A stretch of 64,000 nucleotides of DNA from a virus. Shown here in pieces: positions 30,034-63,801 of the stretch (its first letter is position 1; each line of letters starts with the position of its first letter). Under the pieces are notes generated by a model. It worked only from the letters and a program-made list of their open reading frames with translations, was not told where the DNA came from and made no database searches. The DNA is taken from positions 40,787 through 104,786 of IMG/VR virus record IMGVR_UViG_3300032249_000480; one strand, written 5' to 3'. The position numbers were made by a program, and so were the translations under genes.

Positions 30034-30039
30034 TATAAT

Positions 30040-31908: not shown

Positions 31909-31912
31909 TTAA

Positions 31913-43199: not shown

Positions 43200-44201
43200 A
43201 TGAATTCATTTAAGAAAGTATCGCTAATCATCGCTGCAGCCCTGACTAGCACAATGCTTGTAGCACCAGCAGCACAAGCAAATTCTGGAACTGTTACATT
43301 AACAGTAGCAGGATCTGCAGCAACAGGTGGAACAGTAGTAACAACTCCTGTATCACTACCAGTACCAGCAGACAACAGCATTGATGCAGCAGATGCATTA
43401 AAAATTGCAGTTACTGGTGTAGACACTGGAACTGTAGTAACAGCAGTTGCAGTAAATGCAACAATTGTTCCTGCTCTAGCAACAACTGGAACAGCAGTAA
43501 CAGCATTTTCTGGAACATCAACACTGTCAATTGGGACAGGAACTGGAACATCAGCAGACTTTTATGTATATACTAAAAGTACAGCAGTAGGATCAGTATC
43601 TATTACTCGTGCTGGAACAACAACAGTTTATTATGTTCAAGGTACCGCAGGTGCACTGAACTCAATTACGCTGACCGCTCCTGCATCAGCAGCAGCAGGT
43701 ACATCACAGGTGCTTAAAGTATCTGGATTTGACGTGTTTGGTAATCTAAAGAGCGGAGCCACTATCAATACATTGGTTTCAAGTTCTGGAGCAGCACTTG
43801 TAACAGCGCTGACAACTGACACAGCAACAGCAACACTTGGAACAAAAGAGCAGACAGTAACAATGCCTGCAACTGGTTCAGTAACAGTAGTTGCATATGC
43901 AACAGTAGCAACAGCCGTAACAGGTTTAGCAGCACCAGTAGGTTCTGTAAGTGCTACAATTGCAGTTCGTGATATTGCTGGAGAACTAGCAGCAAAGAAT
44001 GCAGAAGTTGCTTCTTTGACGGCACAACTTGCAGCAGAAAAGGCTGGACGTGCAGCAGATAAGGTTGCATCAGATAAGGCGCTTGCAGATGCGAAGGTTG
44101 CATCAGATGCAATAATTGCCTCTATCAAGAAGTCATTCAACGATCTTGCAAAGAAGTGGAATAAAAAGAATCCACGTGCTAAGGTTACACTTATTAAGTA
44201 A
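43200..44201 (+). CDS. Secreted Ala/Thr/Val-rich surface protein with C-terminal coiled coil
   Basis: Sec signal MNSFKKVSLIIAAALTSTMLVAPAAQA; beta-rich Ig-like body; basic C-terminus; AAGGAG SD. Confidence 0.75.
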   Translation: MNSFKKVSLIIAAALTSTMLVAPAAQANSGTVTLTVAGSAATGGTVVTTPVSLPVPADNSIDAADALKIAVTGVDTGTVVTAVAVNATIVPALATTGTAVTAFSGTSTLSIGTGTGTSADFYVYTKSTAVGSVSITRAGTTTVYYVQGTAGALNSITLTAPASAAAGTSQVLKVSGFDVFGNLKSGATINTLVSSSGAALVTALTTDTATATLGTKEQTVTMPATGSVTVVAYATVATAVTGLAAPVGSVSATIAVRDIAGELAAKNAEVASLTAQLAAEKAGRAADKVASDKALADAKVASDAIIASIKKSFNDLAKKWNKKNPRAKVTLIK

Positions 44202-44310: not shown

Positions 44311-45744
44311 TTGAAAAAGTTATTACGTATAGCCCTAATCTTGACCCTAGCATTTTTCCCACTAGTTTTTGCTTTAGATAAAGCAGGGGCAGAAGAAACT
44401 CCTACTGTAACAACTATAGTAACTCCTGGTGGAGACGATGTATCTTATCAAATCCCACTAACAGTAACAGTTGTTTATGACGGTGTTACGTATGAAAGGG
44501 TTTATGCTACGACTAATTCTGTTATCACATTTGGAAGACCTGATGGAACATACTGGGATTATCCATTAACTCCATCTATATCAATTGAATCTCGTGATTG
44601 GTGGGCTTTGCCACAACAGATGCCAGATACTCATTTTATTATTAATGTTAGTGATGGTGGATTTCAAGTAGATGGTGCATATCGTCCTTATGGATCTTTT
44701 ACTGGTGATGTAACAAGTATTGTTATTACTGCACAGATTCAGACAGATAATACTGTTGCTTATACATATGCAGTTAATGGACCTTTACAAGGTAATGAAA
44801 GAACAGGTGCTCGTTTAAATAATGGAACAGTTGTACCTTTAGAACAAGCAAATATTATTGAAGTTGTTGTTCCTCCAGTTTTAGAGCCAGAGCCAATTGC
44901 TCCAACCCCTACGCCTACACCAACGCCTGAGCCTACGCCAACCCCTACTCCTACGCCTGAGCCAATCATTCCAGAACCACAACCAATACCAGTGCCTCAA
45001 CCAGAACCTGTGATTCCTGCTCCAAGACCTGAACCAGTTGTAATTCCTGATCCTCCTGCGGTTATTCCTGATCCACCAGTAGTGGAACCTGAGCCTCCAA
45101 TTGTAGAGCCTGAGCCTCCAACAGAAGAACCTGAACCACCTACACCTATAGAAGAACCTCCTGCAGAAGCAGAAGAACCTCCAGTAGAGGCTGAAGAACC
45201 GCCTTTGGTGGAAGAAGAAGCCCCTAATTTAGTAGAAGAACCACCTTTAGTGGCAGATGAAAATTCTACTGATGAAGAAAAAGAAATTATTGCTGAGGCT
45301 TTAATAGAAGCAGCAAATGGTGAAGCCATTACTGCAGAGGATATAGCAGAAGCAGGTCTTACTTATGCTGACCTACCATCTCAGACTCCTGTTGAAGTTC
45401 GTCAAGATGAAAATGGAAACGAAGTAATTATTACGGCTGAAGTTGCAGCAGCGCTTGTGCTACTAGAAAACCCAGCAGAACTAATAAGCGCAATTTTTAC
45501 TGACCCAGCACAAGCACTTTTGGCTATAGGAAGCATTGGTGCAGATATGTCTGAAGAAGAGCGTGAAGAAGCAACAGAAATGGTTGTTGCAACAGTTGTA
45601 GCAGCAGGTGCAGCAATAAATGCCGCAGGTGCAGCAGCGGGGGCAGCAACATCCACTGGAGGATCTACTGGAAGTAATTCTGGCGGATCAGGTGGTGGAG
45701 GAGCCTCTGGCGAATCCAAGGGAGTAAGGAGAAGAAAACCATGA
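44311..45744 (+). CDS. Secreted/membrane-anchored Pro/Glu-rich protein
   Basis: Signal peptide, globular N-domain, ~120-aa Pro-rich stalk, hydrophobic segment and basic C-terminus. Confidence 0.75.
   Translation: MKKLLRIALILTLAFFPLVFALDKAGAEETPTVTTIVTPGGDDVSYQIPLTVTVVYDGVTYERVYATTNSVITFGRPDGTYWDYPLTPSISIESRDWWALPQQMPDTHFIINVSDGGFQVDGAYRPYGSFTGDVTSIVITAQIQTDNTVAYTYAVNGPLQGNERTGARLNNGTVVPLEQANIIEVVVPPVLEPEPIAPTPTPTPTPEPTPTPTPTPEPIIPEPQPIPVPQPEPVIPAPRPEPVVIPDPPAVIPDPPVVEPEPPIVEPEPPTEEPEPPTPIEEPPAEAEEPPVEAEEPPLVEEEAPNLVEEPPLVADENSTDEEKEIIAEALIEAANGEAITAEDIAEAGLTYADLPSQTPVEVRQDENGNEVIITAEVAAALVLLENPAELISAIFTDPAQALLAIGSIGADMSEEEREEATEMVVATVVAAGAAINAAGAAAGAATSTGGSTGSNSGGSGGGGASGESKGVRRRKP
44870..45250 (+). 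repeat. Coding low-complexity repeats (PT)n, EPEPP, EEPP
   Basis: Degenerate tandem repeats such as cctacgcct and gaagaacct. Confidence 0.8.
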
Positions 45745-48596: not shown

Positions 48597-48797
48597 ATGG
48601 AATCAACAAAGAGAACATTGCTTAAAACAGCAAGTTGGGAAACTTTTCACCTTGTTGGTGTAGCAGGAGTAATTTATTTATTTACTGGTGAATGGGAATA
48701 CGCAAGCCTTGGAGCATTACTATACATTGGTTGGGAAGCACTTGGATACTTTCTTCATGAAAGAGTATGGGCAAAGTTTGGTAAAAAAATTAAATGA
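48597..48797 (+). CDS. DUF2061-like membrane protein
   Basis: MESTKRTLLKTASW...YFLHERVW. Confidence 0.8.
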   Translation: MESTKRTLLKTASWETFHLVGVAGVIYLFTGEWEYASLGALLYIGWEALGYFLHERVWAKFGKKIK

Positions 48798-49426
48798 GCA
48801 ATGTTCCAGATAATATTTACATAGATCATATAAAAAAAATTGGAAAAGATGTTAAAAATATAAATGTTTTTGAAAATTTTTTAAATGATGAAGATTATAA
48901 TTATCTGTATGAAGAATGTTTAAATTCAGAATGGTCTGAAAATTACAGGCAAAATCTTAGAAAAGATAAAACAATTTTAAGCAATAACGCAAAACAAATA
49001 TTTAAAAATGTTGCAAATATTTTAAGTAATAAAATAAAAGAAATTTATAATGTAGATGTTTCAATATCAAGTGAACCATTTTTAATAAGATGGGATATGG
49101 GTTCTGAAATGGGCGAACATATTGACGATTTTTCTGTTTTTCATTATCATTTTGCTGCTATTTTGTATTTAAATGATAACTACTCTGGAGGAGAAATATG
49201 CTTTCCAGATTATAACCTTACAATTAAACCAAAAGGAAACTCTTTAGTTTTATTTCCTGGCAATAAATATTATTCTCATGAAGTATTAAAAAATACATCT
49301 GGAGAAAGATACACTATGCCAATGTGGTTTAAGTTAAATGATTCTGATTTTCAAGGAACTGGAACTGCATTTAACCTTATAGATATAAACGATTATAAAT
49401 ATAATAATTGGGAAAACAAAATATAG
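48794..49426 (+). CDS. Prolyl-4-hydroxylase-like 2OG-Fe(II) oxygenase
   Basis: HID...ILYLNDNYSGGE...HEV...GERY. Confidence 0.88.
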   Translation: MSNVPDNIYIDHIKKIGKDVKNINVFENFLNDEDYNYLYEECLNSEWSENYRQNLRKDKTILSNNAKQIFKNVANILSNKIKEIYNVDVSISSEPFLIRWDMGSEMGEHIDDFSVFHYHFAAILYLNDNYSGGEICFPDYNLTIKPKGNSLVLFPGNKYYSHEVLKNTSGERYTMPMWFKLNDSDFQGTGTAFNLIDINDYKYNNWENKI

Positions 49427-50034: not shown

Positions 50035-50441
50035 TGTACGAATATCATGTTAAATCTATTACAAATGTAGTAGATGGGGATACTATTGATGTTGATATTG
50101 ATTTAGGATTTGATATTTCATTTAGTTCAAGAGTTAGGCTGGCTGGTATTGATACACCAGAATCTAGAACAACTAACAAGGCTGAAAAAGTTCTTGGTCT
50201 TGAGTCAAAAGATTATTTAAAGAAAAAACTAAAAGATGCAAAGTCTGTTATTATTAAAACTGAAAAAATGGATTCATCTGAAAAGTATGGTCGTATTCTT
50301 GGCTGGCTTTACATTAATGGAGATACCGTTTCAGTAAATGATCACATGATTAATGATGGCTATGCTTGGGGATATCTTGGTGAAACTAAAGTTAAAGATT
50401 TTGAAGCACTAGCAAAAGTAAGAGCAAAAGTTAAAAAATGA
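50034..50441 (+). CDS. Thermonuclease (SNase-like)
   Basis: VVDGDTI, VRLAGIDTPE, KYGRILG. Confidence 0.9.
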   Translation: MYEYHVKSITNVVDGDTIDVDIDLGFDISFSSRVRLAGIDTPESRTTNKAEKVLGLESKDYLKKKLKDAKSVIIKTEKMDSSEKYGRILGWLYINGDTVSVNDHMINDGYAWGYLGETKVKDFEALAKVRAKVKK

Positions 50442-51199
50442 TTATTCAAATTATTGGTCTTCCAGGTTCTGGAAAAACAGAACTAGCAAAGGCACTTAAA
50501 GAACGTATTAACGCTATTCATCTTAATGCAGATGAAGTTCGTGCAACAGTTAACTCAGACTTAGGGTTTAGTCCAGACGATAGACTTGAGCAGGCACGAC
50601 GTATGGGAGAAATGGCAAGACTAATTTCAAAGCAGGGTATTGCTCCAGTAATCGTTGACTTTGTTTGCCCTACAGACTTAACTCGTGCAGCATTTGGAAA
50701 GCCAGACATTTTGGTATTCATGAACACGATTGAAGAAGGAAGATTTGAAGATACTAACAAGATGTTTGAAATGCCAACAAACTATGACATTGCTTTTATA
50801 AGCCATGAATGGGATGCAAATGAAAAAGCATCTGTAATCATTAATCAGTTTAGCCTACATGATTGGTCTGCACCTACAACTCTTATGCTGGGTAGGTACC
50901 AGCCATGGCACGAAGGCCACCACGCCCTTTATAAGGAGGCTGGTAAGAGAACTGACCAAGTTCTTCTTGGAGTCCGTAATACCTATAACACAAGTGAAAA
51001 GGATCCACTTAAGTTTGATCAGGTAAAAGAATATATTGCCAAAGATGAATTTATGGATGGAGCATTAGTATTAAGATTACCTAACATTACCAATATTGTT
51101 TATGGTCGTGATGTAGGATATAAAATTGAGCAAGTAGATTTGGGGGCAGATATTCATGCTATTTCGGCTACTGAAAAACGCAAGCAACTTGGTCTTTAA
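50438..51199 (+). CDS. Adenylylsulfate kinase (CysC-like) fused to HxGH nucleotidyltransferase domain
   Basis: GLPGSGKT, LNADEVR...DLGFSPDDR..ARRMGE (CysC-like); GRYQPWHEGH and ISAT (HIGH superfamily). Confidence 0.82.
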   Translation: MIIQIIGLPGSGKTELAKALKERINAIHLNADEVRATVNSDLGFSPDDRLEQARRMGEMARLISKQGIAPVIVDFVCPTDLTRAAFGKPDILVFMNTIEEGRFEDTNKMFEMPTNYDIAFISHEWDANEKASVIINQFSLHDWSAPTTLMLGRYQPWHEGHHALYKEAGKRTDQVLLGVRNTYNTSEKDPLKFDQVKEYIAKDEFMDGALVLRLPNITNIVYGRDVGYKIEQVDLGADIHAISATEKRKQLGL

Positions 51200-53877: not shown

Positions 53878-54159
53878 ATGAAACAGCATTTATGGAAAGA
53901 TGATGCAAGATGTTTAGACATGGATACTAATCTATTTTTTGAAAAGTATGAAGATGAAGAATCTTTAAGACCAGCAATAGATAGCATATGTAAACAATGC
54001 CCAGTATTAAAAACATGTTTTGCCGTAGGAATTTCCAATAAAGAGTGGGGAGTTTGGGGAGGAATCTTCATAGAAAATGGTAAAATATCTAGAGAATTTA
54101 ATAAACATAAATCTAAACAAGATTGGGGAAACACGTGGAAATCCTTAACAATGGATTAG
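53878..54159 (+). CDS. whiB: WhiB-family Fe-S transcription factor
   Basis: W...ARC...LFF...CKQCPVLKTC...GVWGG. Confidence 0.92.
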   Translation: MKQHLWKDDARCLDMDTNLFFEKYEDEESLRPAIDSICKQCPVLKTCFAVGISNKEWGVWGGIFIENGKISREFNKHKSKQDWGNTWKSLTMD

Positions 54160-54172
54160 CAGGCTGCGCCTA

Positions 54173-54412
54173 ATGGCACTTGGCTATACAGATGAAATGC
54201 GTAAGGCTTTTCATGCAATCCCAGCACCTAAAGGTTTTGGTGTTGATTTAATTGATAATACTTATTTTATTACAATTCGTATTGATGAAAAAGCATTTCT
54301 TTATTTAAATCATGATCAAAAAATGGAAGCATTTGAATATGTTATTAAAGTTCAAAAGGCTTTAGAGGCTTCAGGGGCTGTTGTTCAAGTTGTTAGAAAA
54401 CCATTAAAGTAA
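54173..54412 (+). CDS. Hypothetical protein
   Basis: TAATG-coupled to the glycosyltransferase. Confidence 0.65.
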   Translation: MALGYTDEMRKAFHAIPAPKGFGVDLIDNTYFITIRIDEKAFLYLNHDQKMEAFEYVIKVQKALEASGAVVQVVRKPLK

Positions 54413-55329
54413 TGTCAATATTTATTTCTGTTGCAAGTTATCGTGATCCACATCTTCAACTAACACTTAAAAGTGCTGTTGAAAATGCAAATAATCCTGC
54501 AGGTTTATTCTTTGGTATTGTTAATCAAGATACTGCTAGGAATGAAGTTGATTATTCCTTTTTGCCAGATTATTCTGTAATTAAAATGCATCCAAGAAAT
54601 GCAAAAGGTGTTGGCTATGCAAGAAGCAAGGCAATGTCTTTATACAATGGAGAAGATTATTTTTTACAGGTTGATTCTCATACTCAGTTTTCAAAAGACT
54701 GGGATTTAAAATCCATAAAACAATTAAAGACTGCACAGGAAATTGCAGGACATAAAAAAGTTATAATGTCCTGCTATCCTGGTCCTTATAGTTTAGATAA
54801 TAATCAGGTATTCATACATACAATATCTACAGAAGAACATCCTGTAGAGCCAATGAAGCATATTGCTAAACTAAGAGTTGACGATCAGTGGTCTGCAATC
54901 AGGGTTCCAATGGATAGTCCAAATTCTGAAAGACCAGAACTTTCTAATACAGTTCTTGGAGGATATATTTTTGCTACTGGTAATATTGTAAATGAAATTC
55001 CATATGATGAAGAAATAAGTTTTATGGGTGAAGAAATTTGTTTTGCAATGAGGGCTTGGACAAGGGGATGGGACATATATTCACCATCAATACCAATTGT
55101 TTATCATTTTTATAGAAGGCCAGGATATCCTAAAGTATGGTCTGATGATGTAGTTAGAGAACAGAACTGGGATCAACTTCAAGAAATATCAAAAGAAAAA
55201 CAAAGAAAAGTTTTATGTGGTATTGAACAAGGAATCATGGGAGCAGGATCTATTAGAACTATAAAAGATTATGAAGAATTTATAGGTTATGATTTTGAAA
55301 AAATATATAACAGGTTGACAAACAAATGA
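54412..55329 (+). CDS. GT60-like (Skp1 hydroxyproline GlcNAc-transferase-like) glycosyltransferase
   Basis: IFISVASYRDP, GVGYAR, YFLQVDSHTQF..DWD, FMGEE...RAWTRGWDIYSP...YHFY. Confidence 0.82.
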   Translation: MSIFISVASYRDPHLQLTLKSAVENANNPAGLFFGIVNQDTARNEVDYSFLPDYSVIKMHPRNAKGVGYARSKAMSLYNGEDYFLQVDSHTQFSKDWDLKSIKQLKTAQEIAGHKKVIMSCYPGPYSLDNNQVFIHTISTEEHPVEPMKHIAKLRVDDQWSAIRVPMDSPNSERPELSNTVLGGYIFATGNIVNEIPYDEEISFMGEEICFAMRAWTRGWDIYSPSIPIVYHFYRRPGYPKVWSDDVVREQNWDQLQEISKEKQRKVLCGIEQGIMGAGSIRTIKDYEEFIGYDFEKIYNRLTNK

Positions 55330-55366
55330 TATACATGTACAATATATATATAGAGATAGGGTAAAA

Positions 55367-55735
55367 ATGCTAACAGCACTTATTGTTACAATAATCCTTG
55401 CTTTGTTATTTTTTGCAAAAGGTTTACAATTGGCTATGCGACTAAACAAATTAAAAGAATTAGTTGCAATACAGGAAGTAAAAATAGAGGCTAACTCTGA
55501 TCCAGTTAAAGAAGACTTTTTAAAATTTGTGTCTGATTCTCGTGAATGGGCATTTGAATATATAGAAGAAGTTCAAATTGCATTAAACAATTTTAAAGAA
55601 AAAGTTGAACCACAGATTGAATATTTTGATAAATACGGAGATGTTCTTTCTAACCAAAGGCCAGATTATGAATCAATGAAAAAAATTTCTCAGGCATATA
55701 AAGAACTAATACTTATATTGCCAGAGAATAAATAG
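55367..55735 (+). CDS. Membrane-anchored hypothetical protein
   Basis: N-terminal TM; TTGACA-17-TACAAT promoter at 55315-55343. Confidence 0.65.
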   Translation: MLTALIVTIILALLFFAKGLQLAMRLNKLKELVAIQEVKIEANSDPVKEDFLKFVSDSREWAFEYIEEVQIALNNFKEKVEPQIEYFDKYGDVLSNQRPDYESMKKISQAYKELILILPENK

Positions 55736-55744
55736 GGGGATAAA

Positions 55745-55903
55745 ATGAAAGACATTATACTATCAACACTAACAGGTTTTGGATGTGGCGTTGTTTTCGC
55801 AGCATTCAAATTGCCAGTACCAGCACCACCAGTTTTTGCGGGAGTCGCAGGAATTATTGGTTTATGGATTGGCTTCACAATACTAACACGAGTTATATCC
55901 TAG
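55745..55903 (+). CDS. XapX-like (DUF1427) small membrane protein (absent from ORF track)
   Basis: MKDIILSTLTGFGCGVVFAAFKLPVPAPPVFAGVAGIIGLWIG. Confidence 0.75.
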   Translation: MKDIILSTLTGFGCGVVFAAFKLPVPAPPVFAGVAGIIGLWIGFTILTRVIS

Positions 55904-55912
55904 GAGGAAATA

Positions 55913-56179
55913 ATGAATAAAGCACAACTACAAGCACTACTAGCATCATACGGACGATCAGTTCTTGGTGCAGGTCTTGCACTATACATGTCTGGGGTAA
56001 CAGACCCTAAGACACTGGCATATTCTCTAATTGCTGCTCTTGCACCAGTTGCATTAAGAGCAATTAATCCAAACGACACAGCATTTGGTCGTTTGCCAGA
56101 TGCCTCAACAGTTGAAGCAGCAGTAAAGAATGTTAAGGTAAAGAAGGCTCCTGCAAAGAAAGCAGCAGCAAAGAAGTAA
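55913..56179 (+). CDS. Small membrane protein, holin candidate, with Lys/Ala tail
   Basis: AGGAGG SD; two hydrophobic helices; NPNDTAFG; KKAPAKKAAAKK. Confidence 0.55.
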   Translation: MNKAQLQALLASYGRSVLGAGLALYMSGVTDPKTLAYSLIAALAPVALRAINPNDTAFGRLPDASTVEAAVKNVKVKKAPAKKAAAKK

Positions 56180-56192
56180 TTTAATTACTTAT

Positions 56193-56226
56193 AAGATAGC
56201 CAGTCCACAACGGGCTGGCTTTTCTT
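56193..56226. terminator. Bidirectional terminator between convergent arms
   Basis: agccagtcc-acaac-gggctggct with A/T-rich flanks. Confidence 0.8.
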
Positions 56227-57259
56227 ATTTATTCATAATATATTCGTAACGCTCTTTAAGATTTTTAGGATCAAAGTTAAAACATCCTAATCTAAAGGCT
56301 TCTTTTTTTGCTACTTCTTGATCATTGCTATTAGCATAATTATCAACTAATTCAGCCAACTTAATAATATCAGGCTCATAAACATCAACAACAACTCTAG
56401 CCTTAAATTCTCCTATTTTATTAGCAGGCACCACCCATTCCTCTGGAAGCACGGTATTGTTAGGAGAAATATCAGTCATAAACACAGGAAGACCACTCAT
56501 AAGAGCCTCATTCATAGGCAAACAAAGTCCTCCATAGCGTCTAGGAAGGATTAGAGCGTCAAACCCACTGTATAGGTCCTCTTGATTCTCTAAGTCCCTA
56601 CAATCAATTGTAATGCGTGGATCTTTTATCTCAATATCTAGTGGTTCTTGTGTTCTTATTACCAATTCATAATCAGCCTTGGAATACCTTAACATTTCTA
56701 TAACACTCTCAGTGCCGTTTCTATCTTTTGTTGCTGCCGTACCCAAAATATGCAAAAATCTTTTATGTTTTTTAGATAAATTATTTTCTCTAGCATTTTT
56801 AAAATTGTCTGGATTTGTTGGTGGAGGCAGATGAGTTAGTTTAGTTTGATGACCAAATACTCTTGCAACTTCATCAAAACCCCAAAGACTAGGACTAAGC
56901 AGATGATATGCCAATGGCTTATATTGATCCATCATATTTTCAAAAAATTCATAATTATATTGTTGAAAAGTTTTAACACCATAGCGCCCAGCAAGTGCAA
57001 CAAAATCTTTATGATAAAAAGTTTCGCATGTTAAAATAGCATCTAAACCTTGAATAAATCTTTTGCATGAATTAATATCTGGATAACCATATTGATCTTG
57101 AACGTTATAACCTTCATACCATTCTGGATGTTGTTTTTTCTTTTTAAATTCTGAAAAATCAATAAGCAAAACTTTCTCAGGATTCAACATGTGTACAAGT
57201 TCCCTTGTTTGATTACCAAGTCCACTATTGTCTGATCTTGCTATAATTCCTAATCTCAT
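56225..57259 (-). CDS. GT-B (GT4-like) glycosyltransferase
   Basis: MRLGIIARSDNSGLG; ILPRRYGGLCLPMNEALMSGLPVF. Confidence 0.85.
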   Translation of the reverse strand: MRLGIIARSDNSGLGNQTRELVHMLNPEKVLLIDFSEFKKKKQHPEWYEGYNVQDQYGYPDINSCKRFIQGLDAILTCETFYHKDFVALAGRYGVKTFQQYNYEFFENMMDQYKPLAYHLLSPSLWGFDEVARVFGHQTKLTHLPPPTNPDNFKNARENNLSKKHKRFLHILGTAATKDRNGTESVIEMLRYSKADYELVIRTQEPLDIEIKDPRITIDCRDLENQEDLYSGFDALILPRRYGGLCLPMNEALMSGLPVFMTDISPNNTVLPEEWVVPANKIGEFKARVVVDVYEPDIIKLAELVDNYANSNDQEVAKKEAFRLGCFNFDPKNLKERYEYIMNK

Positions 57260-58017
57260 TCTGTATACCCCCATGCTTGATCATCTGCAGTAAACTTTCT
57301 TGTTCCTGCTCTGCCATCCAAATGTGCAGATCTTTTAATATTTCCTTCTGGATGATATATGTGTAGTTTGTGCATTTCCCAACCCATTTGAGAAAATTTG
57401 TTATATGGAAGTATATGATCTTGCACTGCTCCATGAAAAGTATCTTCAATAAATTCCCTATCTGGCATTATAGGCAAAATAATATCTCTATAATAGTCAA
57501 CAGTTGTAAGGTGTGGACGCTGACTCCACTGGGCTGTTTCTAAAAATTCTTCATTTAATTTAAACATTAAATGTTTGTGTGGATCAGGAATTGATGCTTC
57601 AAAATGAAATCTAATTGTTTTGCCTTGTCCTCTTTCAATAAAATTAATACATTTATCCCAATCAATTGGCTGATCTGTTACAAGTGGAGCATCTCCTTCA
57701 ACATAAAGCATTAATGGTGTTTTAATCATATTTATTGTTTTAGCCATCATAGTAGTTTGATGTGAAAAACGATCAAAAATTATAGGAAGAAGTTTTGTGT
57801 CTTCATGTAATGCTTTCCATAATATCCTATTTTTATATTCATCATAATCATTTTTTCTATTTTGTCTTTCATCTCTTAGTCCATCAATTTGTATAATAAT
57901 TTCATTTGTTGGAAAATGGTATCTAATTGACCTTAATGTTTCATCAAGAATATGTGTATCAGGATGACTAGGAAGAACAGATGTTACTACAACAATTGTT
58001 ACATCATCTTTGTTCAT
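57256..58017 (-). CDS. GT-A fold glycosyltransferase-like protein
   Basis: VTIVVVTS, IIQIDG, TPLMLYVEGD, HLDGR. Confidence 0.6.
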   Translation of the reverse strand: MNKDDVTIVVVTSVLPSHPDTHILDETLRSIRYHFPTNEIIIQIDGLRDERQNRKNDYDEYKNRILWKALHEDTKLLPIIFDRFSHQTTMMAKTINMIKTPLMLYVEGDAPLVTDQPIDWDKCINFIERGQGKTIRFHFEASIPDPHKHLMFKLNEEFLETAQWSQRPHLTTVDYYRDIILPIMPDREFIEDTFHGAVQDHILPYNKFSQMGWEMHKLHIYHPEGNIKRSAHLDGRAGTRKFTADDQAWGYTE

Positions 58018-58864
58018 TTAGGTCCTCCATTATTTCATTAAATAAATCTCTTTTGAATTTAATCCACCAAGATACTGCCTGATGCATATTGTTTGGATAG
58101 TTACTATATAAGTTTACCATTAAACTTGATAAATCTTCCCAATAATTTACAGATACTATTGGCATTGTTTGCTTAAATAATGGACCAAAATAGTTTGGCT
58201 TTTCGTCTTTTGGTGTTGTGCTATCAACTATTGGATAACATAATAATTCCAAGGCTTCGTAAAATCTAAAAGAATCAAGAACCACTATTCCAGAAGGGCA
58301 GGGTATAAATTTAGATCTAGCCATATTACTATAATAAACATCTGGGATATCTCCTTGTGTAAAGCCTTCAGTAAATTTATATATTGTGTTAGGTATATTT
58401 GGCAACACTTTTGATAGTTGCTTCCTTCTATTATGATTTATTTGACCGCTAAAATATAAATCAATGTCTTTTGTTTTATAGGTTGGAGCGTATTCTTTAA
58501 AATGTTGAGGAGCACCTTGTGGAAGTTTTTTATACTTTTCATGTTTATCATGTGGATATTGTATCCATATTGATGCATTACGATGAGTTATCTTATCTGC
58601 ATCAAACAGCCCTGCTTCATCACCCATTACAAAAAGAACTACTCTTCCTATATTGTTTAATTCAGCAGATATCTTTTCTTCTAAACCTGCATTAGATGGT
58701 CCAGGTATTGCAACAAATGCTTTATCACAATATTCTAATGATTTTACATTAACTTGTTCAATATTTTTTCTTTCACAAAATTCTTTTAAAATGCCATAAT
58801 CCCATTTATTTGCAGCAGAATCTGTTCCTTCAGCAGAATAAAGGTATAGTTTAAATTGGCTCAT
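58004..58864 (-). CDS. Exostosin (GT47)-like glycosyltransferase
   Basis: LYFSGQ...RR...SKFIPCPSG...SFRFYEALELLCYPIV. Confidence 0.7.
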   Translation of the reverse strand: MSQFKLYLYSAEGTDSAANKWDYGILKEFCERKNIEQVNVKSLEYCDKAFVAIPGPSNAGLEEKISAELNNIGRVVLFVMGDEAGLFDADKITHRNASIWIQYPHDKHEKYKKLPQGAPQHFKEYAPTYKTKDIDLYFSGQINHNRRKQLSKVLPNIPNTIYKFTEGFTQGDIPDVYYSNMARSKFIPCPSGIVVLDSFRFYEALELLCYPIVDSTTPKDEKPNYFGPLFKQTMPIVSVNYWEDLSSLMVNLYSNYPNNMHQAVSWWIKFKRDLFNEIMEDLNEQR

Positions 58865-59564
58865 AAAGGAAGTGAACCTCATGTTGATAATCTAAATAAG
58901 TTTCCTTATATCCCATGCCCTTAATCCACTGTCTAAGATCATATAGGTATTCATTCCATTGCTGTATCATAAATTCTGGATGACCAGATAGCCAAATCTT
59001 TGGTTTAAATTCTCTCATTACTTTTTCTGCACCACCCAACACACGCCACTCACTGCCCTCTACGTCTAAAGAAATTGCGGTAGGTGGTTTAATACCATGA
59101 TCATAAACACAAGAGTCTATAGTAATTTGACCATAGTTAGCACCCTCAAGATATAGTTCTTTAAATCCATGAGCAGCCTCAATTGTTTGATTAGCCTCTG
59201 GTGGAAATTCGCTATAGTAAATACGAGCAAGATCATTAACTTTGTCAGATGCAAATCCAGGAATACATGCTAATGGCATTTCTAAATTGTTTGCTTCCCA
59301 TAACAAAGGAAAATGAGACCAAACTTTTGGATTAGGTTCAAACAAAACAACTTCAGCACCCCACATTTGGCACAAAGCAGGGAACTCTCCTTCTTCTGCT
59401 CCAACATAGTAAACAACATCTCCATTGCCAAGTACTTCATGCATAGATTTAAGTCTAGGTTTTTCCCACCCATGATCTTGATACCAATCTGGCCTTACTG
59501 CACGATGTTCTGGCAACACTATTTCAAATTCTCCATTGATCAGAGACTTAATCATTTCAGTCAT
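58851..59564 (-). CDS. FkbM-family SAM methyltransferase
   Basis: YYVGAEEG, FEPNP, SLDVEGSEWRVLGG. Confidence 0.85.
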   Translation of the reverse strand: MTEMIKSLINGEFEIVLPEHRAVRPDWYQDHGWEKPRLKSMHEVLGNGDVVYYVGAEEGEFPALCQMWGAEVVLFEPNPKVWSHFPLLWEANNLEMPLACIPGFASDKVNDLARIYYSEFPPEANQTIEAAHGFKELYLEGANYGQITIDSCVYDHGIKPPTAISLDVEGSEWRVLGGAEKVMREFKPKIWLSGHPEFMIQQWNEYLYDLRQWIKGMGYKETYLDYQHEVHFLYEPI

Positions 59565-60514
59565 ATCTTTAACTCCTTTAATATAGTTGCCCATCTGTCT
59601 ACATATGTATGCTCATCTATTGTTCTATCATGTCCAGCAAGGCGAATAGACTCTCTTTCTTCGTTATGCTCTAAGTAATAGTCAATTTTATTTTTTAGAT
59701 CTGTAAGATCACCATGCTTGTAGAATACAACTTCTTCATCAGTAAACAAATCATGAAGCCCATCAATGTCAGGGTAGATAGTAAATCCACCACGACCAGT
59801 AGACTCAAACAATCTATCACTTGTATAGTAAGGATAGTTAAACCCTATGTTAAGGCTATCTCCAATTGCAATTTTGCTACGTGCATAGATTCTGTTTAAA
59901 TCATTACCACGCACAGTTCCAGTATCACCATCTCCACCCACATGAAGAAATCTTTTACCATAAGTTGCTCTTAAGAAATCTATTAATTGTGGACGGTATG
60001 GATATTCATGATGATAACGCTTACTACCAACAAAGATTACATCATAGTCAAAAGACTCTCCATCGTAATGGTCATGTAGATAGCACTCTTTACCAAACAC
60101 ACCTGCTGGCAAAAAATGTCCTTTAACATTTGTATTTTCATTAAACCAATCAGACATTAATTTATCTACTGTAAAGAAATGACCAATTGTTTTATAAAAA
60201 TTATCTTTTTCTAAATCTTTTTGACGATCTAAACCAAACCACAAATCAAGATGATAAGTCATTGTTGGTATATTTAGTTCTTTGAGTTGCTCAAGAACAG
60301 TATCCATGCTTATATTTCCTGTTGTTTGCCAGCCATGTGTGTGTACCCAGACAAATAGATCGCTATCTTTTGCAAATCTCAGTATTGTGTCTGTACTTTC
60401 TTGTGCTTCTTGTAGTTTAACTACTTTGTGCCCTAAAGATTCTAGGCTTTTAGCATGATGGTTTTCACTACTATAAGATACCTGAAAGTTACCAAGAAAT
60501 GTTATTGTTGCCAT
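59561..60514 (-). CDS. CgeB-like GT-B glycosyltransferase
   Basis: YDVIFVGS, IYARSKIAIG, SDRLFESTGRGGF, HTYVDR. Confidence 0.82.
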   Translation of the reverse strand: MATITFLGNFQVSYSSENHHAKSLESLGHKVVKLQEAQESTDTILRFAKDSDLFVWVHTHGWQTTGNISMDTVLEQLKELNIPTMTYHLDLWFGLDRQKDLEKDNFYKTIGHFFTVDKLMSDWFNENTNVKGHFLPAGVFGKECYLHDHYDGESFDYDVIFVGSKRYHHEYPYRPQLIDFLRATYGKRFLHVGGDGDTGTVRGNDLNRIYARSKIAIGDSLNIGFNYPYYTSDRLFESTGRGGFTIYPDIDGLHDLFTDEEVVFYKHGDLTDLKNKIDYYLEHNEERESIRLAGHDRTIDEHTYVDRWATILKELKI

Positions 60515-60537
60515 TAAGCGTTAGTCAATCTTTGCAT
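60514..60537 (-). CDS. Leaderless 7-codon upstream ORF (MQRLTNA)
   Basis: ATG 7 nt after TGATATAAT; its TAA overlaps the ATG of the next gene. Confidence 0.5.
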   Translation of the reverse strand: MQRLTNA

Positions 60538-60572
60538 ATTAATGATTATATCAGGTTTTCAATATTATATTA

Positions 60573-61184
60573 TTATGTATGAGTAATCCAATTTACAACA
60601 GCAAACTTTTCTCCAGATTCAACTGGTAGCGCTTCGTGTGCAAATAAAAAATTTGAAGGGAAAATTACCATAGAGTTTGCTTTTGGCTTAAATTTTATTC
60701 CAATATATTTAAAGTCAATTTCTCCTCCAGAGTAATCGTCATTTAAATATATAAGATAGGATATAACTCTATTATTATGTGACCCCCAATCATTATGAAA
60801 ATTAAACTTTTGACCACCTCTATATCTTAAAAGTGTGTTTGTTTTTTCTGGATCATTCATATATGGTCCTTGAGGATATTCTTTGGTGTACATGTCAATT
60901 CCAGTTTTTATATGAACATTAAAAGAGACTGCTAGTTTGCCTATAATTTGATAAAAAGGATCTTGACTTATTAAAGATTTTGGATTCATACCTAAAGAAT
61001 CATTGTTTCTATATTTAATATTAATTTTATCATTATCTTTATATCCTACTTTTGCTGTTTCCCATTTTGCAGTTGATTCTGGATTATTACTTATTTCATA
61101 AACATCTTTCATTATTGTTTCATAATTGTCTAGAATATCAGGTATTACCATTAGTCCTGGGAAAATTATATTATTATTAGTCAT
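60573..61184 (-). CDS. Prolyl-4-hydroxylase-like 2OG-Fe(II) oxygenase
   Basis: LLRY...HND...RVISYLIYLNDDYSGGE...HEALPVESGEK. Confidence 0.88.
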   Translation of the reverse strand: MTNNNIIFPGLMVIPDILDNYETIMKDVYEISNNPESTAKWETAKVGYKDNDKINIKYRNNDSLGMNPKSLISQDPFYQIIGKLAVSFNVHIKTGIDMYTKEYPQGPYMNDPEKTNTLLRYRGGQKFNFHNDWGSHNNRVISYLIYLNDDYSGGEIDFKYIGIKFKPKANSMVIFPSNFLFAHEALPVESGEKFAVVNWITHT

Positions 61185-61202
61185 AGTTCATTATACACCT
61201 AG

Positions 61203-61275
61203 CGCCCCTGGCAAAAATTGAACCTGCGACACATGGCTTAGAAGTCCATTGTTCTATCCACTGAACTACAGAGGC
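61203..61275 (-). tRNA. tRNA-Arg(TCT), partly degenerate
   Basis: Acceptor GCCTCTG/CAGGGGC; anticodon loop CT-TCT-AA; A.G mismatch in anticodon stem; two G.U pairs in T stem; no CCA. Confidence 0.7.
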
Positions 61276-61276
61276 T

Positions 61277-61352
61277 TGGCTGGTCTGGCAGGCTACGATC
61301 CTGCGACATCCGAATTAACAGTTCGGCACTCTACCAACTGAGTTACAGACCA
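61277..61352 (-). tRNA. tRNA-Asn(GTT)
   Basis: 76-nt cloverleaf; TGGTCTG/CAGACCA; CCGAA-CTGTTAA-TTCGG; encoded CCA. Confidence 0.9.
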
Positions 61353-61353
61353 G

Positions 61354-61427
61354 TACAACAGGTAGGACTTGAACCTACGATAGCCGAATTATGAGTTCGG
61401 TGCCTTAACCAACTTGGCTACTGTTGC
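61354..61427 (-). tRNA. tRNA with CAT anticodon (Ile2 or elongator Met)
   Basis: GCAACAG/CTGTTGT; CCGAA-CTCATAA-TTCGG; GTAGG-TTCAAGT-CCTAC; lacks the initiator GGG/CCC anticodon stem. Confidence 0.85.
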
Positions 61428-61687
61428 TTATTTTTACGTTTAGAAGTTCTATCTTCAATTAATTTAATAACCATATCAATACCTTCAGAATAAGCCAAAG
61501 CATCATCTTTAGCCCACATAAGATTACCTTCATCATCAAATGAAGATCCACGATAAACTAAATACTCAGACTTCTTAGTTAGTAGTGTTTGTATAAGTTC
61601 TTTTCTTTCCCAAGAAACAGCCTTTTGACAACCATTACAAGGACAAGCCCAGTCACCACGTTCAGATGTTTGATTTGGATCAGCCAT
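61418..61687 (-). CDS. Hypothetical protein
   Basis: CPCNGC motif; stop codon falls inside the tRNA 5' end. Confidence 0.6.
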   Translation of the reverse strand: MADPNQTSERGDWACPCNGCQKAVSWERKELIQTLLTKKSEYLVYRGSSFDDEGNLMWAKDDALAYSEGIDMVIKLIEDRTSKRKNKQQ

Positions 61688-61793
61688 TATGTTCTTTCAT
61701 ATGTCTAGATAAACTATCATGAGCAAATATTCCCCAACGCAATTCCCACTCTTTGTTGCATTCTGAACATACAACTATTCTATTACTTGCCAA
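61680..61793 (-). CDS. 37-aa C2H2-like zinc finger peptide
   Basis: TTG start; CSEC...LSRHMKEH. Confidence 0.5.
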   Translation of the reverse strand: MASNRIVVCSECNKEWELRWGIFAHDSLSRHMKEHNG

Positions 61794-61906
61794 GACTACC
61801 CCAGGTAATATTTATTTCCCAGAGTAAAAAGTTGATAATAATGTGTCCATTATTAATTAGAGTTTTTGGTGCATAAAGAATTCCAAAGCCAATGTAAGGT
61901 GTTCTG

Positions 61907-62143
61907 TTAAAATTCATTTTGTCCCCTTGCAATAGCAGCACCTGCTTCAAATGCTTTCTTAGTCCTGCGACTTTTAAGCCAACCTTTACTTTCCCAAAGC
62001 GGTATCGTAGCAAGAATATCTCTAGCAATTTGCTCACGAATATCTTTAACGGTAAGAATAACTATCTCAGCAATAACTGCTTTCTTTTCATCTTCTAGGT
62101 TATCAATCCATGTCTCTAATTCTTTTTGTGTTAATTCAGACAT
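61907..62143 (-). CDS. Hypothetical protein
   Basis: GAGG SD; IREQIARDI...AAIARG. Confidence 0.65.
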   Translation of the reverse strand: MSELTQKELETWIDNLEDEKKAVIAEIVILTVKDIREQIARDILATIPLWESKGWLKSRRTKKAFEAGAAIARGQNEF

Positions 62144-62144
62144 T

Positions 62145-62357
62145 TTATTCCTCTCGCTTCCAGTGTAGGTAAGATTTTATATAAATTGCAGCGTATGCTA
62201 ATGCCATTGCTATAAAACCATATTGTTTAGTTGTTAAAGCATATGCAACCCAAAGGAATTCGTTAACAAACAAAATAAGCCATCCCCATATTGTTTTACG
62301 ACCTACAAGAAATATTCCTGTAACGCCAATAGCGGCTAATACCCAAGACCACATCAT
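62145..62357 (-). CDS. Small PnuC-like membrane protein
   Basis: Three hydrophobic segments; RKTIWGW...W..YA...QYG...Y..W. Confidence 0.5.
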   Translation of the reverse strand: MMWSWVLAAIGVTGIFLVGRKTIWGWLILFVNEFLWVAYALTTKQYGFIAMALAYAAIYIKSYLHWKREE

Positions 62358-62886
62358 TCGCTAGGTCCTGCGTATTCTTCTATCTCTCGTTTAATGTCGT
62401 TAATAGTTTTTTCTGGCATATCAAACTCTCTGTCAAAATCTGCTTTATTCATATAATCAGTATACTACAAACTCTTTGATTTGTAAAGTTCGGCGACAAG
62501 AGGGTAGTGTACCTACCTATGAGTCTTGCGACTCACTATTGGTTATCTTTTCCCATATTAGCCTACCATCTTTCCATTGAGATTGATAGCCTAAAGATTT
62601 CCAATCCATTTGCATGATCCTAGGCTCTTTCATTTGCCACCTAAAGCAAACCAGATAACCCAAACTACAGTTGCAACGCCTGCCAAAAAACCTAAGATAA
62701 ACTCAATCATTTTTTATTAACACACCACAATCTATCTGGAAGCCATTGATGGGTTTCATAGAAATCTTCTTCATCTTCTGACATGTTACACTGAATGCAA
62801 CTCGTATCCATTAATCAATCCTATCTATTTCTTCTAAACTATATGCTCCGTAATACTCCATAAAGTCTTCTTCTGTCAATGTTATT

Positions 62887-63099
62887 TCAGTATCCATTTA
62901 GGCACTCATTTCTTGTATGGTAAAGCCTTGTCTTGGTGATCGTCTTTTTTGTGGGGGCATATAAAGATTGACCACAACACCCACAATTATAACACCACTC
63001 CTTAGCAAAGAAGTCATAGATAGCACTCTTGTACAGTTGATATTTTTTAGATACAAAGGTTTGAAATGGATCAGGGATTTCTAGATTAATCATGTGCAC
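62887..63099 (-). CDS. Small Cys-rich hypothetical protein
   Basis: CGCCG...HTRNEC; within a run of short minus-strand ORFs. Confidence 0.55.
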   Translation of the reverse strand: MHMINLEIPDPFQTFVSKKYQLYKSAIYDFFAKEWCYNCGCCGQSLYAPTKKTITKTRLYHTRNECLNGY

Positions 63100-63270
63100 T
63101 CATTTGAGAAATAACACGATGCATAATAATAATAGCCTCATCTTGATTATTATCCTCAAGAAATTCAAGTGCTTGCTTAAGGTCTTTAGACCAATTGTTC
63201 ATTCTTTTAGTTGGTTTGATAATTGGTTTCATACATCAAGTATAGTCAATTTTGCAGGAGAAGTCAAGGT

Positions 63271-63801
63271 CTAAAGAATAACCTTGCGTTCCAAAGCCTT
63301 ATTGAATAACTCATGGCATTGTCTAAGATTTTTAGATTTAACAATTTCAAGGATTTGATCATACTGAGGATGTAACTTAGAAGAGAGTAAAAATGTATCT
63401 GGAAAAAAATTATTAGGATTAAGAGTAACTGGCCTATACTCAATGTCAAACAAATCAGACACATATTTAACGATTTTTTCAGTTTTATTTATGTCATCAA
63501 AATCAAATATAACATTGACATTTTTTATAACATGTTCAAGAAACTCGTTATAGGTTTTTATCTTAGAATCAATCATATTATTTATAATATTAATATCTTC
63601 ATCTGGACTAAGATTAAATGCTGCAGATGAGGCAATACAACCAATAGGCTCTCTGATAATGCTTATCATTGGGTATTGTGTAATGTAGACGTTGTGCACT
63701 CTAGTGACTTTAACATTAAGAGTTTTTCCTAGAAGTGTACAGATATGTACTGTGCCAGAGCGTTGATGAGTATTTACTACTAACTCTTTCCAAGGCTGCA
63801 T
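63271..63801 (-). CDS. Sulfotransferase-like protein
   Basis: VVNTHQRSGT (5'-phosphosulfate loop-like) and IIREPIGCIAS (3'-phosphate motif-like); leaderless start. Confidence 0.55.
   Translation of the reverse strand: MQPWKELVVNTHQRSGTVHICTLLGKTLNVKVTRVHNVYITQYPMISIIREPIGCIASSAAFNLSPDEDINIINNMIDSKIKTYNEFLEHVIKNVNVIFDFDDINKTEKIVKYVSDLFDIEYRPVTLNPNNFFPDTFLLSSKLHPQYDQILEIVKSKNLRQCHELFNKALERKVIL

Follow-up and report, generated by a model that had tools for sequence, protein, structure and literature searches.

A GT60 glycosyltransferase and a convergent five-gene cassette as a candidate protein O-glycosylation kit of a freshwater actinobacteria phage

Introduction

To our knowledge, protein glycosylation by enzymes that a virus encodes itself has been documented for few viruses only, namely chloroviruses and some mycobacteriophages. 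Here, we describe a locus in a 64,000-nucleotide stretch of DNA (the window), bases 40787-104786 of the 104,786-bp IMG/VR virus record IMGVR_UViG_3300032249_000480, which includes a gene for a glycosyltransferase (GT) of family GT60 and, convergent to it, a cassette of five overlapping genes of putative glycan synthesis. We tentatively read this locus as a modular cytoplasmic protein O-glycosylation kit of an approximately 105-kb phage of freshwater actinobacteria. A preliminary description of the same DNA had proposed a single pathway leading from proline hydroxylation through GT60 and glycan extension to sulfation.

The closest described initiating enzymes are the GT60 members of protists, which include those that start mucin-type glycosylation in Dictyostelium and in Trypanosoma cruzi as well as Gnt1, which acts on Skp1. 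According to the available portions of PMC8724618 and PMC7185993, the protist members are polypeptide alpha-N-acetylglucosamine (GlcNAc)-transferases, the family has been reported from prokaryotes and protists only, and both GT27 and GT60 perform polypeptide Ser/Thr O-glycosylation; a DxH motif instead of DxD is given as a hallmark common to the two families in the portion of PMC7185993. The phage enzyme belongs to the same family (PF11397) and carries the same DxH, and no ricin-type lectin domain was found in it, the lack of this domain being typical of GT60 according to the available text of PMC8724618. It differs in being phage-encoded and predicted to be cytoplasmic in a bacterium, and in occurring without a prolyl 4-hydroxylase (P4H) in a complete relative (G011). 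Coupling of P4H and GT60 also occurs outside the studied protists, in the form of fusions and of bacterial gene pairs.

Among viruses, glycosylation of mycobacteriophage virions has reportedly been described by Freeman et al. in 2023 in Cell Host Microbe. It is also cited in the accessible parts of PMC12582341 and PMC10568470, and these phages have an actinobacterial host, as does the phage studied here, to judge from its WhiB-type gene. In the chlorovirus PBCV-1, as far as the available part of PMC7019647 describes it, soluble GTs of the virus itself, encoded apart from the structural genes, decorate viral proteins in the manner that we propose here, the terminal sugar is methylated by domain 3 of A064R, and a prolyl 4-hydroxylase is encoded. 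The window differs from both systems in its families (GT60, CgeB-type, GT47-like, and x253, a 253-aa protein of an unnamed family), in the hypervariable middle of its cassette, in the three alternative transferases that flank the cassette, and in that genes alone are read here.

Hydroxyproline (Hyp)-O-glycosylation of extensins and arabinogalactan proteins in plants and algae combines P4H with Hyp-specific GTs. Pro-rich repeat proteins, collagen-type P4H-like enzymes, and GTs are likewise found here, whereas no GT95-, GT96-, or GT31-type enzymes were found, and P4H and GT60 are not co-occurring genes in the phage group. A literature search retrieved no report of phage or bacterial GT60 function. 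GT60 is listed among viral CAZy matches in one preprint, and freshwater actinophage GTs are discussed, in the available portion of PMC10202952, only as possible DNA or cell-wall modifiers.

Genomes and Loci Compared

The record containing the window is rated 100% complete and has an exact direct terminal repeat of 123 bp at its ends; the G+C content of this DNA is about 34%. Because the record encodes structural and replication proteins (portal, protease, capsid, terminase, DnaB-type helicase, DNA polymerase, and UvsX-like recombinase) as well as WhiB, it was regarded as the genome of a tailed phage of an actinobacterium. Every open reading frame (ORF) listed in the preliminary description was recovered at its position. 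Among sequencing runs, no RNA run was listed as containing this DNA.

Two sets of viral loci were compared: set A, with 88 loci anchored on GT60, and set B, with 80 loci anchored on the CgeB-like gene. The sets overlap in some contigs and are not independent, and each represents the 80 best-scoring loci of a larger list. ORFs in the locus comparison were called by a simple longest-ORF heuristic. Three related genomes served as references: G001 (101.5 kb, terminal repeats, 100% complete), G011 (107.7 kb, 100% complete), and G010 (88% complete). The search of the genome collection gave 113 candidate stretches with a GT60 relative; 80 loci were retained, all but one of them at 28-36% identity.

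The GT60 Gene and Its Link to the Cassette

The match of the GT60 protein to PF11397 lies far above the cut-off (Table 1) and covers profile positions 1-43 and 101-349 of 352, which confirms the assignment made in the preliminary description. We retrieved 447 relatives of this enzyme, and the motif D88-S-H90 (DxH) was invariant in all 15 relatives that were aligned. Hydropathy revealed no transmembrane (TM)-like segment in GT60 or in any other of the enzymes, including those of the cassette, and no PDB chain matched GT60 by sequence or profile search.

The phage group is very common, since at least 600 viral-contig stretches match portal-protein patterns; a GT60 relative is encoded by 491 of 596 viral candidate stretches. 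Megablast of the region against GenBank phages gave zero matches, and tblastn with GT60 matched only four jumbo Xanthomonas/Stenotrophomonas phages at 27-28% identity, the XacN1 copy adjoining a carbamoyltransferase gene, not P4H. Across the 88 loci of set A, the gene order is kept as p139, p116, WhiB, s79, a variable insert, GT60, tm122, p88, and the convergent cassette (tm122 in 82 and p88 in 66 loci).

In set B, 48 loci had both flanks of the cassette visible. The flanking transferase was GT60 only in 19 loci, a GT8-like protein (235 aa) only in 11, and a Stealth-like protein (230 aa) only in 16; two loci had none and no locus had two, so that exactly one of the three flanks the cassette in 46 of 48 loci. 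One of the two empty loci (L237) begins at the CgeB gene, and its upstream position lies outside the contig. Neither a GT8-like nor a Stealth-like gene was present in any of the 68 loci of set A having both GT60 and GT4. In L104, two GT60-family genes flank the cassette, and the second adjoins JmjC and P4H genes. To judge from this distribution, GT60 appears to be tied to the operon. A phage glycan-building system with sugar methylation, as had been proposed for this DNA, is plausible. A 52-row tree from the concatenation of CgeB-like and GT4-like proteins, rooted at the midpoint, has the GT60 state on its deeper branches.

Cassette Genes, Their Conservation, and Fusions

The cassette consists of genes for a CgeB-type GT, an FkbM-family methyltransferase, a GT47/RXYLT1-like GT, x253, and a GT4-like GT, which overlap by 14-34 nt, in agreement with the tightly overlapped operon seen earlier. 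The CgeB-like assignment was upheld by PF13524 above its curated cut-off, and that of FkbM by both PF05050 and TIGR01444 above theirs (Table 1); the FkbM protein probably acts as a sugar O-methyltransferase. The calls for the remaining three genes fared less uniformly. The exostosin-like GT kept a borderline match to RXYLT1_C, with Exostosin_GT47 below its cut-off (2e-5, 24.5 bits against 33.4), and the same weak pair recurs in relatives. The GT4 call is weak, as the Pfam matches fell short of their cut-offs (PF13692, 9.5e-5, 23.1 bits against 27; PF00534, 4.6e-4, 20.2 against 26.4), with backing from a PHROG glycosyltransferase family. The call of x253 as a GT-A enzyme was not borne out, as no match was found in Pfam, PHROGs, NCBIfam, or PDB profile searches, and hhalign gave probabilities of 2.4% against the GT60 profile and 0.1% against the GT8-like profile. 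Beyond FkbM, the NCBIfam scan gave a weak Fe2+ dioxygenase match and nothing else.

Among the 30 GT60 loci with at least 7 kb downstream, GT4 and CgeB were each present in 27, x253 and the GT47-like gene each in 19, and FkbM in 17. Variant middles contained an NAD-epimerase/dehydratase (6.9e-41), an NTP-transferase-like gene, FkbM or S-adenosylmethionine-dependent methyltransferases, and further GTs. Because the end genes occur in 27 of 30 loci and the middle genes are replaced, the cassette can be described as two conserved ends with a swappable sugar-tailoring middle; conservation of the end genes extends to hundreds of contigs from related phages. The genome of the window encodes neither an Epimerase nor an NTP_transferase, which agrees with the earlier view that nucleotide-sugar synthesis genes are missing and that sugar donors would come from the host.

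A profile search with x253 retrieved 915 relatives, and 116 of the best 150 are proteins of 450-699 aa with x253 as the C-terminal domain; an RXYLT1_C/Exostosin-like N-terminal domain was found in seven of ten Pfam-scanned proteins from these 150. Larger fusions combine CgeB-like, GT47-like, and x253 domains (P0193) or GT47-like, x253, and GT4-like domains (P0166), and P0269 has x253 followed by a weak GT4-like match below the cut-off, with no GT47-like match returned. The fusions follow the gene order of the operon, suggesting that the cassette works as one unit. Exostosins EXT1 and EXT2 carry a GT47 domain followed by a GT64 GT-A domain. The combination of a GT47/RXYLT1-like domain with a second domain of about 250 aa, fused in the 116 proteins above, is similar to them; x253 differs in matching no Pfam family including GT64, and the phage parts are separate, overlapping genes.

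The minus-strand unit begins close to the right end of the genome and passes through the sulfotransferase-like gene, several small ORFs, a PnuC fragment, p89, P4Ha, and the cassette. Relatives also have the PnuC-like ORF as a short, conserved gene. By eye, TGATATAAT was noted in the 58 nt that precede the CgeB-like gene; a promoter scan was uninformative (48 sites against 50 expected). A flippase, a polymerase, or an initiating polyprenyl-phosphate transferase was not noticed in the cassette, no search having been aimed at these.

GT60 Relatives in Bacteria and Domain Fusions

Bacterial GT60 loci provide candidate substrates in the immediate neighborhood. In the 80 bacterial loci, 9 of 11 Pro/Thr-rich ORFs immediately adjoin GT60 (odds ratio 20.5, p 1e-5, uncorrected for kinship). 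The neighbor proteins in these nine loci are large and built of (TPAPTE)n, (TPEP)n, (APTE)n, or (EPTE)n repeats, and the loci belong to Noviherbaspirillum, Pseudoduganella, Duganella, Aliarcobacter, Nitrincola, Vreelandella, and uncultured Beta-/Burkholderiales metagenome-assembled genomes. P4H is absent within 6 kb in eight of the nine; the remaining one, L284, encodes a (TPEP)n protein, GT60, and a collagen-type P4H, followed by a LuxR-type regulator and an ABC-transporter-like gene. A P4H-like gene is the immediate divergent neighbor in 21 of the 75 bacterial loci with a recognized GT60 ORF, mostly of SAR86. Protein acceptors are therefore supported by neighbors of either kind, Pro/Thr-repeat or P4H, and Thr is at least as likely a target as Hyp.

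As side observations, the pairs of GT60 and repeat protein, seen in several proteobacterial genera (among L272-L288, L302, and L335), represent a candidate bacterial mucin-like O-glycosylation system. The SAR86 loci (L279, L291, and 17 more) have a divergent pair of P4H (about 205 aa, H..D..H..K) and GT60, then a MazG-like gene of 138 aa, and no Pro-rich protein was seen near these pairs.

Fusions of PF13640 with PF11397 were identified in P0130, P0133, and P0137 (chytrid Chytriomyces hyalinus). Other GT60 fusions include FkbM with GT60 in Roseiconus lacunae and several of O-FucT with GT60. In a tree of GT60 domains, a phage clade (10 rows, support 100/99) stands apart from the P4H-fused clade, with the backbone unresolved.

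Candidate Acceptor Proteins

In the window, the closest analogue of the bacterial repeat neighbors is the 44311 protein, which carries PTPTPTPTPEPTPTPTPTPEP. Homologs are present in G001 and G011, and the Pro-rich part varies among homologs. The Pro content of the LysM linker (24577) ranges from 20% to 63% in relatives. We examined whether the Pro-richness of this linker follows P4H: the two P4H-positive genomes were the richest (0.43 and 0.63, against 0.20-0.37 in nine others), and the correlation was dropped as evidence because the number is too small and several records are fragments. The designation of Pro/Thr-rich proteins in the preliminary description holds for 44311 and 24577; the third protein so named, 43200, is Thr/Ala-rich, not Pro-rich. 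It looks like a secreted or surface protein of a lytic phage. A search for Skp1 (PF01466) gave no match in the genome, and 14 control genomes were equally silent.

Hydroxylase Genes and Their Distribution

P4Ha and the CgeB-like gene are on one strand, P4Ha upstream, with 58 nt between them. All six PDB sequence matches of P4Ha are hydroxylases, five of them named prolyl 4-hydroxylase or procollagen-proline dioxygenase, and the best (5c5t at 1.8e-5, 3itq, and 5hv0; E 1.8e-5 to 1e-4) are viral and bacterial P4Hs. The catalytic pattern H130, D132, H183, and K193 is aligned with the HxD and H...GEK of 5c5t. In human C-P4H, the Lys that binds 2-oxoglutarate (2OG) stands at +10 from the distal His; P4Ha has Lys at this position, and three other PF13640 proteins have Arg. 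Two of the three P4H-like oxygenases proposed previously, 60573 (P4Ha) and 48794 (P4Hb), are PF13640 members, and the third, 36963, had no Pfam match at E 0.01. Its HxD...H...R pattern also occurs, by eye, in the genome ORF 30090-30683, and no other member was retrieved with a hidden Markov model (HMM) of this pair. A hydroxylase island upstream of the window contains two more PF13640 genes, immediately preceded by a degenerate paralogue of GT60 that lacks DxH; the island itself is preceded by a Pro/Phe-repeat, fiber-associated protein.

The distribution of these genes does not follow that of GT60 and the cassette. G001 has s79, tm122, p88, and the full five-gene cassette, with GT60 and P4H-like genes absent; G011 has GT60, both cassette ends, and the adenosine phosphosulfate (APS)-kinase fusion, and a six-frame HMM search found no P4H-like or JmjC-like gene in it; G010 combines GT60 and the cassette ends with eight P4H-like genes. 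A P4H-like gene lies within the flanks of only 8 of the 88 GT60 loci. A tally of the 48 visible cassette loci gave one with both GT60 and P4H, 18 with GT60 alone, one with P4H alone, and 28 with neither. The position at the cassette head taken by P4Ha in the window is occupied in the closest relatives (L190, L191, and L193) by a JmjC_2-type oxygenase (Pfam 1.2e-9), and L213 has both JmjC and P4H there without GT60. Strong matches to the Pro/Phe-repeat, Hint-bearing protein were found only beside the P4H arrays of G010, G009, and G004, and in none of the 11 P4H-negative records among the 14 records examined.

Accordingly, phylogenetic profiling, a check that the preliminary description had suggested, showed the genes to assort largely independently across genomes, the outcome it had named as speaking against its own pathway; one obligatory chain of P4H, GT60, extension, and sulfation is not supported (G001, G011, and 8 of 88 loci). 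P4Ha is perhaps an optional accessory, and the other P4H-like genes perhaps serve mainly the separate island of the Pro/Phe-repeat fiber protein, a reading that we hold with some reserve.

Several side observations concern this island. Two paralogous proteins of about 250 aa (genome positions 29356-30114 and 31320-32051; L015 5357-6115 and 7321-8052), without a family match, turn up in relatives at several places near GT60 and the cassette, which gives them the look of mobile genes. A 10-kb contig binned as Acidimicrobiaceae (L343) has seven P4H-like genes and a relative of the 252-aa island protein around one GT60, an arrangement resembling a phage hydroxylase island. In L195 (7688-8140), a Dps/ferritin-like gene of 150 aa, recognized by eye, is located directly upstream of the CgeB-like gene, beside two P4H-like genes.

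Sulfation Genes

The CysC fusion noted previously at 50438 was verified as an APS kinase (Table 1), and it would be a possible source of 3'-phosphoadenosine-5'-phosphosulfate (PAPS). A homolog is present in 10 of the 88 GT60 loci, in G011 and G010, and absent from G001. The sulfotransferase-like call for the 63271 protein is kept as a lead: the ESM Atlas model (predicted local distance difference test, pLDDT, 0.81) has structural neighbors with Sulfotransfer_1/3 at template modeling (TM) scores of 0.71-0.80, and there was no Pfam or NCBIfam match, with chance matches only in the PDB search. The family comprises four proteins including that of the window, the three others being metagenomic. Relatives occur in only 2 of 168 related loci (L215/L216), beside a P4H-like gene and with the APS-kinase fusion in the same locus. 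A relationship to the 239-aa island protein was considered and rejected, as BLASTP was negative. The fusion and the 63271 gene may form another independent tailoring module.

Other Features of the Locus

The s79 ORF, with no family match in Pfam or NCBIfam, has a Pro (Pro19) conserved in at least 90% of 88 sequences. It was rejected as a dedicated substrate of GT60, given its presence in G001, which lacks GT60. The three small genes downstream of GT60 (tm122, the 52-aa ORF, and p88) matched no Pfam family above cut-off and are possibly membrane- or lysis-related. The slot from s79 to GT60/tm122 is an accessory hot spot. In various loci of the comparison, it is occupied by a pyrimidine-dimer DNA glycosylase (PF03013, 4.8e-20), by a flavoenzyme of tryptophan-halogenase-like type (PF04820, 7e-104), by fragments of PnuC, or by copies of the 243/252-aa island proteins. 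In L221 (16826-18469) and L196 (6042-6812), one or two genes of about 250-290 aa stand between p88 and tm122, with no counterpart in the window.

Table 1. Coordinates in the window and annotation of the features discussed in the text
Position	Strand	Feature	Evidence or remark
24577-25404	+	LysM tail-module protein with Pro/Thr/Ser linker, candidate acceptor	LysM 4.8e-7; 43% Pro in a 30-aa window
36963-37502	+	179-aa ORF, possibly a small 2OG-type oxygenase	HxD...H...R pattern by eye only
43200-44201	+	333-aa Thr/Ala/Val/Gly-rich protein, signal-peptide-like N-terminus, coiled-coil-like C-terminus	Just after the terminase gene
44311-45744	+	477-aa protein, hydrophobic, signal-peptide-like N-terminus, long (PT)n/(PE)n region, candidate acceptor	50% Pro in a 30-aa window
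48794-49426	+	P4Hb, second PF13640 oxygenase	E 2.6e-12; H109, D111, H162, R172
50438-51199	+	APS-kinase and nucleotidyltransferase-like fusion	PF01583 8.4e-15; PF01467 2e-3, weak, cytidylyltransferase-like
53878-54159		WhiB-type regulator	
54173-54412	+	s79, conserved 79-aa ORF, end abuts GT60 start	Homolog in 79 of 88 GT60 loci
54412-55329	+	GT60 (PF11397), polypeptide-HexNAc-transferase-like, proposed initiator	E 4.6e-58, 197.8 bits against cut-off 21
55367-56179	+	tm122 (N-terminal TM), 52-aa hydrophobic ORF, and p88, three small conserved genes	
56198-56220		GC-rich terminator-like hairpin between convergent units	9-bp stem, 6 GC pairs, then T-run; consensus match only
56225-57274	-	GT-B glycosyltransferase (GT4-like, weak), conserved 3' cassette end	phrog_2170 glycosyltransferase 1e-13
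57256-58017	-	x253, 253-aa protein, unnamed family	
58004-58882	-	GT47/RXYLT1-like glycosyltransferase	RXYLT1_C 2e-6, 27.8 bits against cut-off 27
58851-59594	-	FkbM-family methyltransferase	PF05050 6.2e-12, 46.4 bits against 22.7; TIGR01444 3.2e-12, 47.1 bits against 37.7
59561-60514	-	CgeB-type (PF13524) glycosyltransferase, conserved 5' cassette end	E 9.8e-25, 87.6 bits against cut-off 25
60573-61184	-	P4Ha, collagen-type prolyl-4-hydroxylase-like 2OG/Fe(II) oxygenase	PF13640 E 1e-17
62145-62357	-	70-aa ORF, PnuC-like fragment	PF04973 2.5e-6, first 69 of 175 positions
63271-63801	-	Sulfotransferase-like 176-aa protein, lead only	ESM Atlas structural neighbors carry Sulfotransfer_1/3

Discussion

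From the observed gene content, synteny, and family memberships we infer a chemistry in which every step is conditional. GT60 would add the first N-acetylhexosamine (HexNAc) to Thr or Ser, or to Hyp where a hydroxylase is present, in Pro/Thr-rich stretches of phage proteins, with the 44311 protein and the 24577 linker as candidates. The cassette would extend and O-methylate this glycan with host nucleotide sugars, and hydroxylation by P4Ha, or by JmjC in relatives, would be an optional step. Sulfation by the 63271 protein with PAPS from the 50438 fusion would be possible and unlinked to the rest. In sister lineages, a GT8-like or Stealth-like transferase would act in the place of GT60. The chemistry is placed in the cytoplasm because the enzymes have no TM-like segments and no flippase or polymerase was noticed.

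A broader version of this idea seems rather unlikely to us. It would see a plug-and-play toolkit, in which a common cassette is primed by interchangeable GT60, GT8-like, or Stealth-type initiators, and optional P4H/JmjC hydroxylases add acceptor sites, resulting in a methylated, possibly sulfated, and rapidly diversifying coat on Pro/Thr-rich virion or surface proteins. Such a toolkit would be the bacterial-virus counterpart of mucin and extensin glycosylation, with bacterial GT60 and repeat proteins as its cellular version.

Several points weigh against a protein O-glycosylation kit. The three flank states need only four changes on the concatenated tree, so the exactly-one-of-three pattern, striking as it is, rests on very few independent events and may reflect lineage history instead of functional replacement. 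The Stealth-like assignment is weak (Pfam 3.6e-4, below cut-off), the best three matches of its PDB profile all being GlcNAc-1-phosphotransferase (GNPTAB, 0.0035-0.015), and the GT8-like assignment is weaker still (Pfam 4.1e-4, below cut-off), with nothing useful from its PDB profile search; both families are better known from polysaccharide synthesis. Because the s79-tm122 slot gathers unrelated accessory genes, adjacency of GT60 and the cassette is in itself weak evidence. The conserved small membrane proteins between GT60 and the cassette make an envelope-directed function conceivable. Furthermore, the candidate acceptors do not track GT60, since phages without GT60 also have Pro-rich homologs of 44311, and the 44311 protein looks secreted, so that a cytoplasmic enzyme must act on it before export.

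An alternative is that the cassette makes or remodels a non-protein glycan of the infected cell (for instance a polymer associated with the wall, a glycolipid, or a soluble oligosaccharide) for superinfection block or surface change, GT60 being an unrelated accessory. We judge this somewhat unlikely. In its favor, the hypervariable middle, through its epimerase/dehydratase and nucleotidyltransferase genes, is reminiscent of O-antigen or capsule loci, polysaccharide synthesis is the usual setting of CgeB-type, GT4-like, GT8-like, and Stealth-like enzymes, and both the small membrane proteins beside the cassette and the mixed content of the s79-tm122 slot fit it. Freshwater actinophage GTs have moreover been proposed as cell-wall or DNA modifiers in the available portion of PMC10202952. 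It is opposed by the lack of TM-like segments in the cassette enzymes and by the polyprenyl-phosphate transferase, flippase, and polymerase not noticed there (none was specifically sought), by the exactly-one-of-three pattern, which links a polypeptide-GT family to the cassette, and by the protein-hydroxylase-type genes (PF13640 or JmjC_2) that head the cassette in the clade of the window itself. The same source (PMC10202952, available portion) gives a general precedent for phage GTs that glycosylate DNA, here against host restriction, and two oxygenases have sub-threshold similarity to Tet_JBP (20.7 and 11.7 bits, cut-off 34.9). On the other side, these scores miss the cut-off, neither a thymidylate-synthase-family hydroxymethylase nor a C5 DNA methylase is encoded in the genome, and GT60 is a polypeptide-GT family as far as the cited portions of PMC7185993 and PMC8724618 go. 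DNA modification was rejected as the main explanation and appears highly improbable. Nor is DNA glycosylation known to follow the pattern of several GTs combined in one cassette with a sugar methyltransferase and nucleotide-sugar tailoring genes.

The pathway of the preliminary description in its strict form, in which P4H makes Hyp on Pro-rich proteins, GT60 adds GlcNAc to it in the manner of Gnt1 on Skp1, extension and methylation by the operon come next, and the sulfotransferase-like enzyme finally uses phage-made PAPS for sulfation, draws on several associations: the position and collagen-type residues of P4Ha and its P4H relatives in the PDB, the degenerate GT60 paralogue before the two PF13640 island genes, the PF13640-PF11397 fusions, the divergent pairs in 21 bacterial loci, the combinations of GT60 with P4H in L284 and L343 and of a second GT60 with JmjC and P4H in L104, and the sulfotransferase-like relative with P4H and APS-kinase fusion in L215/L216. 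We nevertheless consider it quite improbable, given that G011 has GT60 without P4H or JmjC, that G001 has the full operon without GT60 and P4H, and that P4H accompanies GT60 in 8 of 88 GT60 loci and 1 of 48 cassette loci. The phage GT60 clade stands apart from the P4H-fused clade in a tree with an unresolved backbone, eight of nine bacterial repeat-neighbor loci have no P4H within 6 kb, which fits Thr glycosylation, and the strong Pro/Phe-repeat protein matches occur only beside P4H arrays. The rarity of the 63271 gene points in the same direction. No Skp1 match was found, in this genome or in the control genomes.

Conclusions

The modular cytoplasmic protein O-glycosylation kit remains our tentative preference. 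The genes for hydroxylation, glycosylation, and sulfation fall into modules that can be separated from one another and do not form a single pathway, which corrects an attractive over-reading of this locus. If the proposed reading is true, very abundant lake phages would use a eukaryote-style mucin-type initiator together with a swappable extension cassette, and the function of prokaryotic GT60 would become testable with defined candidate substrates, the (PT)n protein of the phage and the (TPAPTE)n neighbors in bacteria. It would also explain one hypervariable island of these phages and provide a handle on the diversification of their virion surface.

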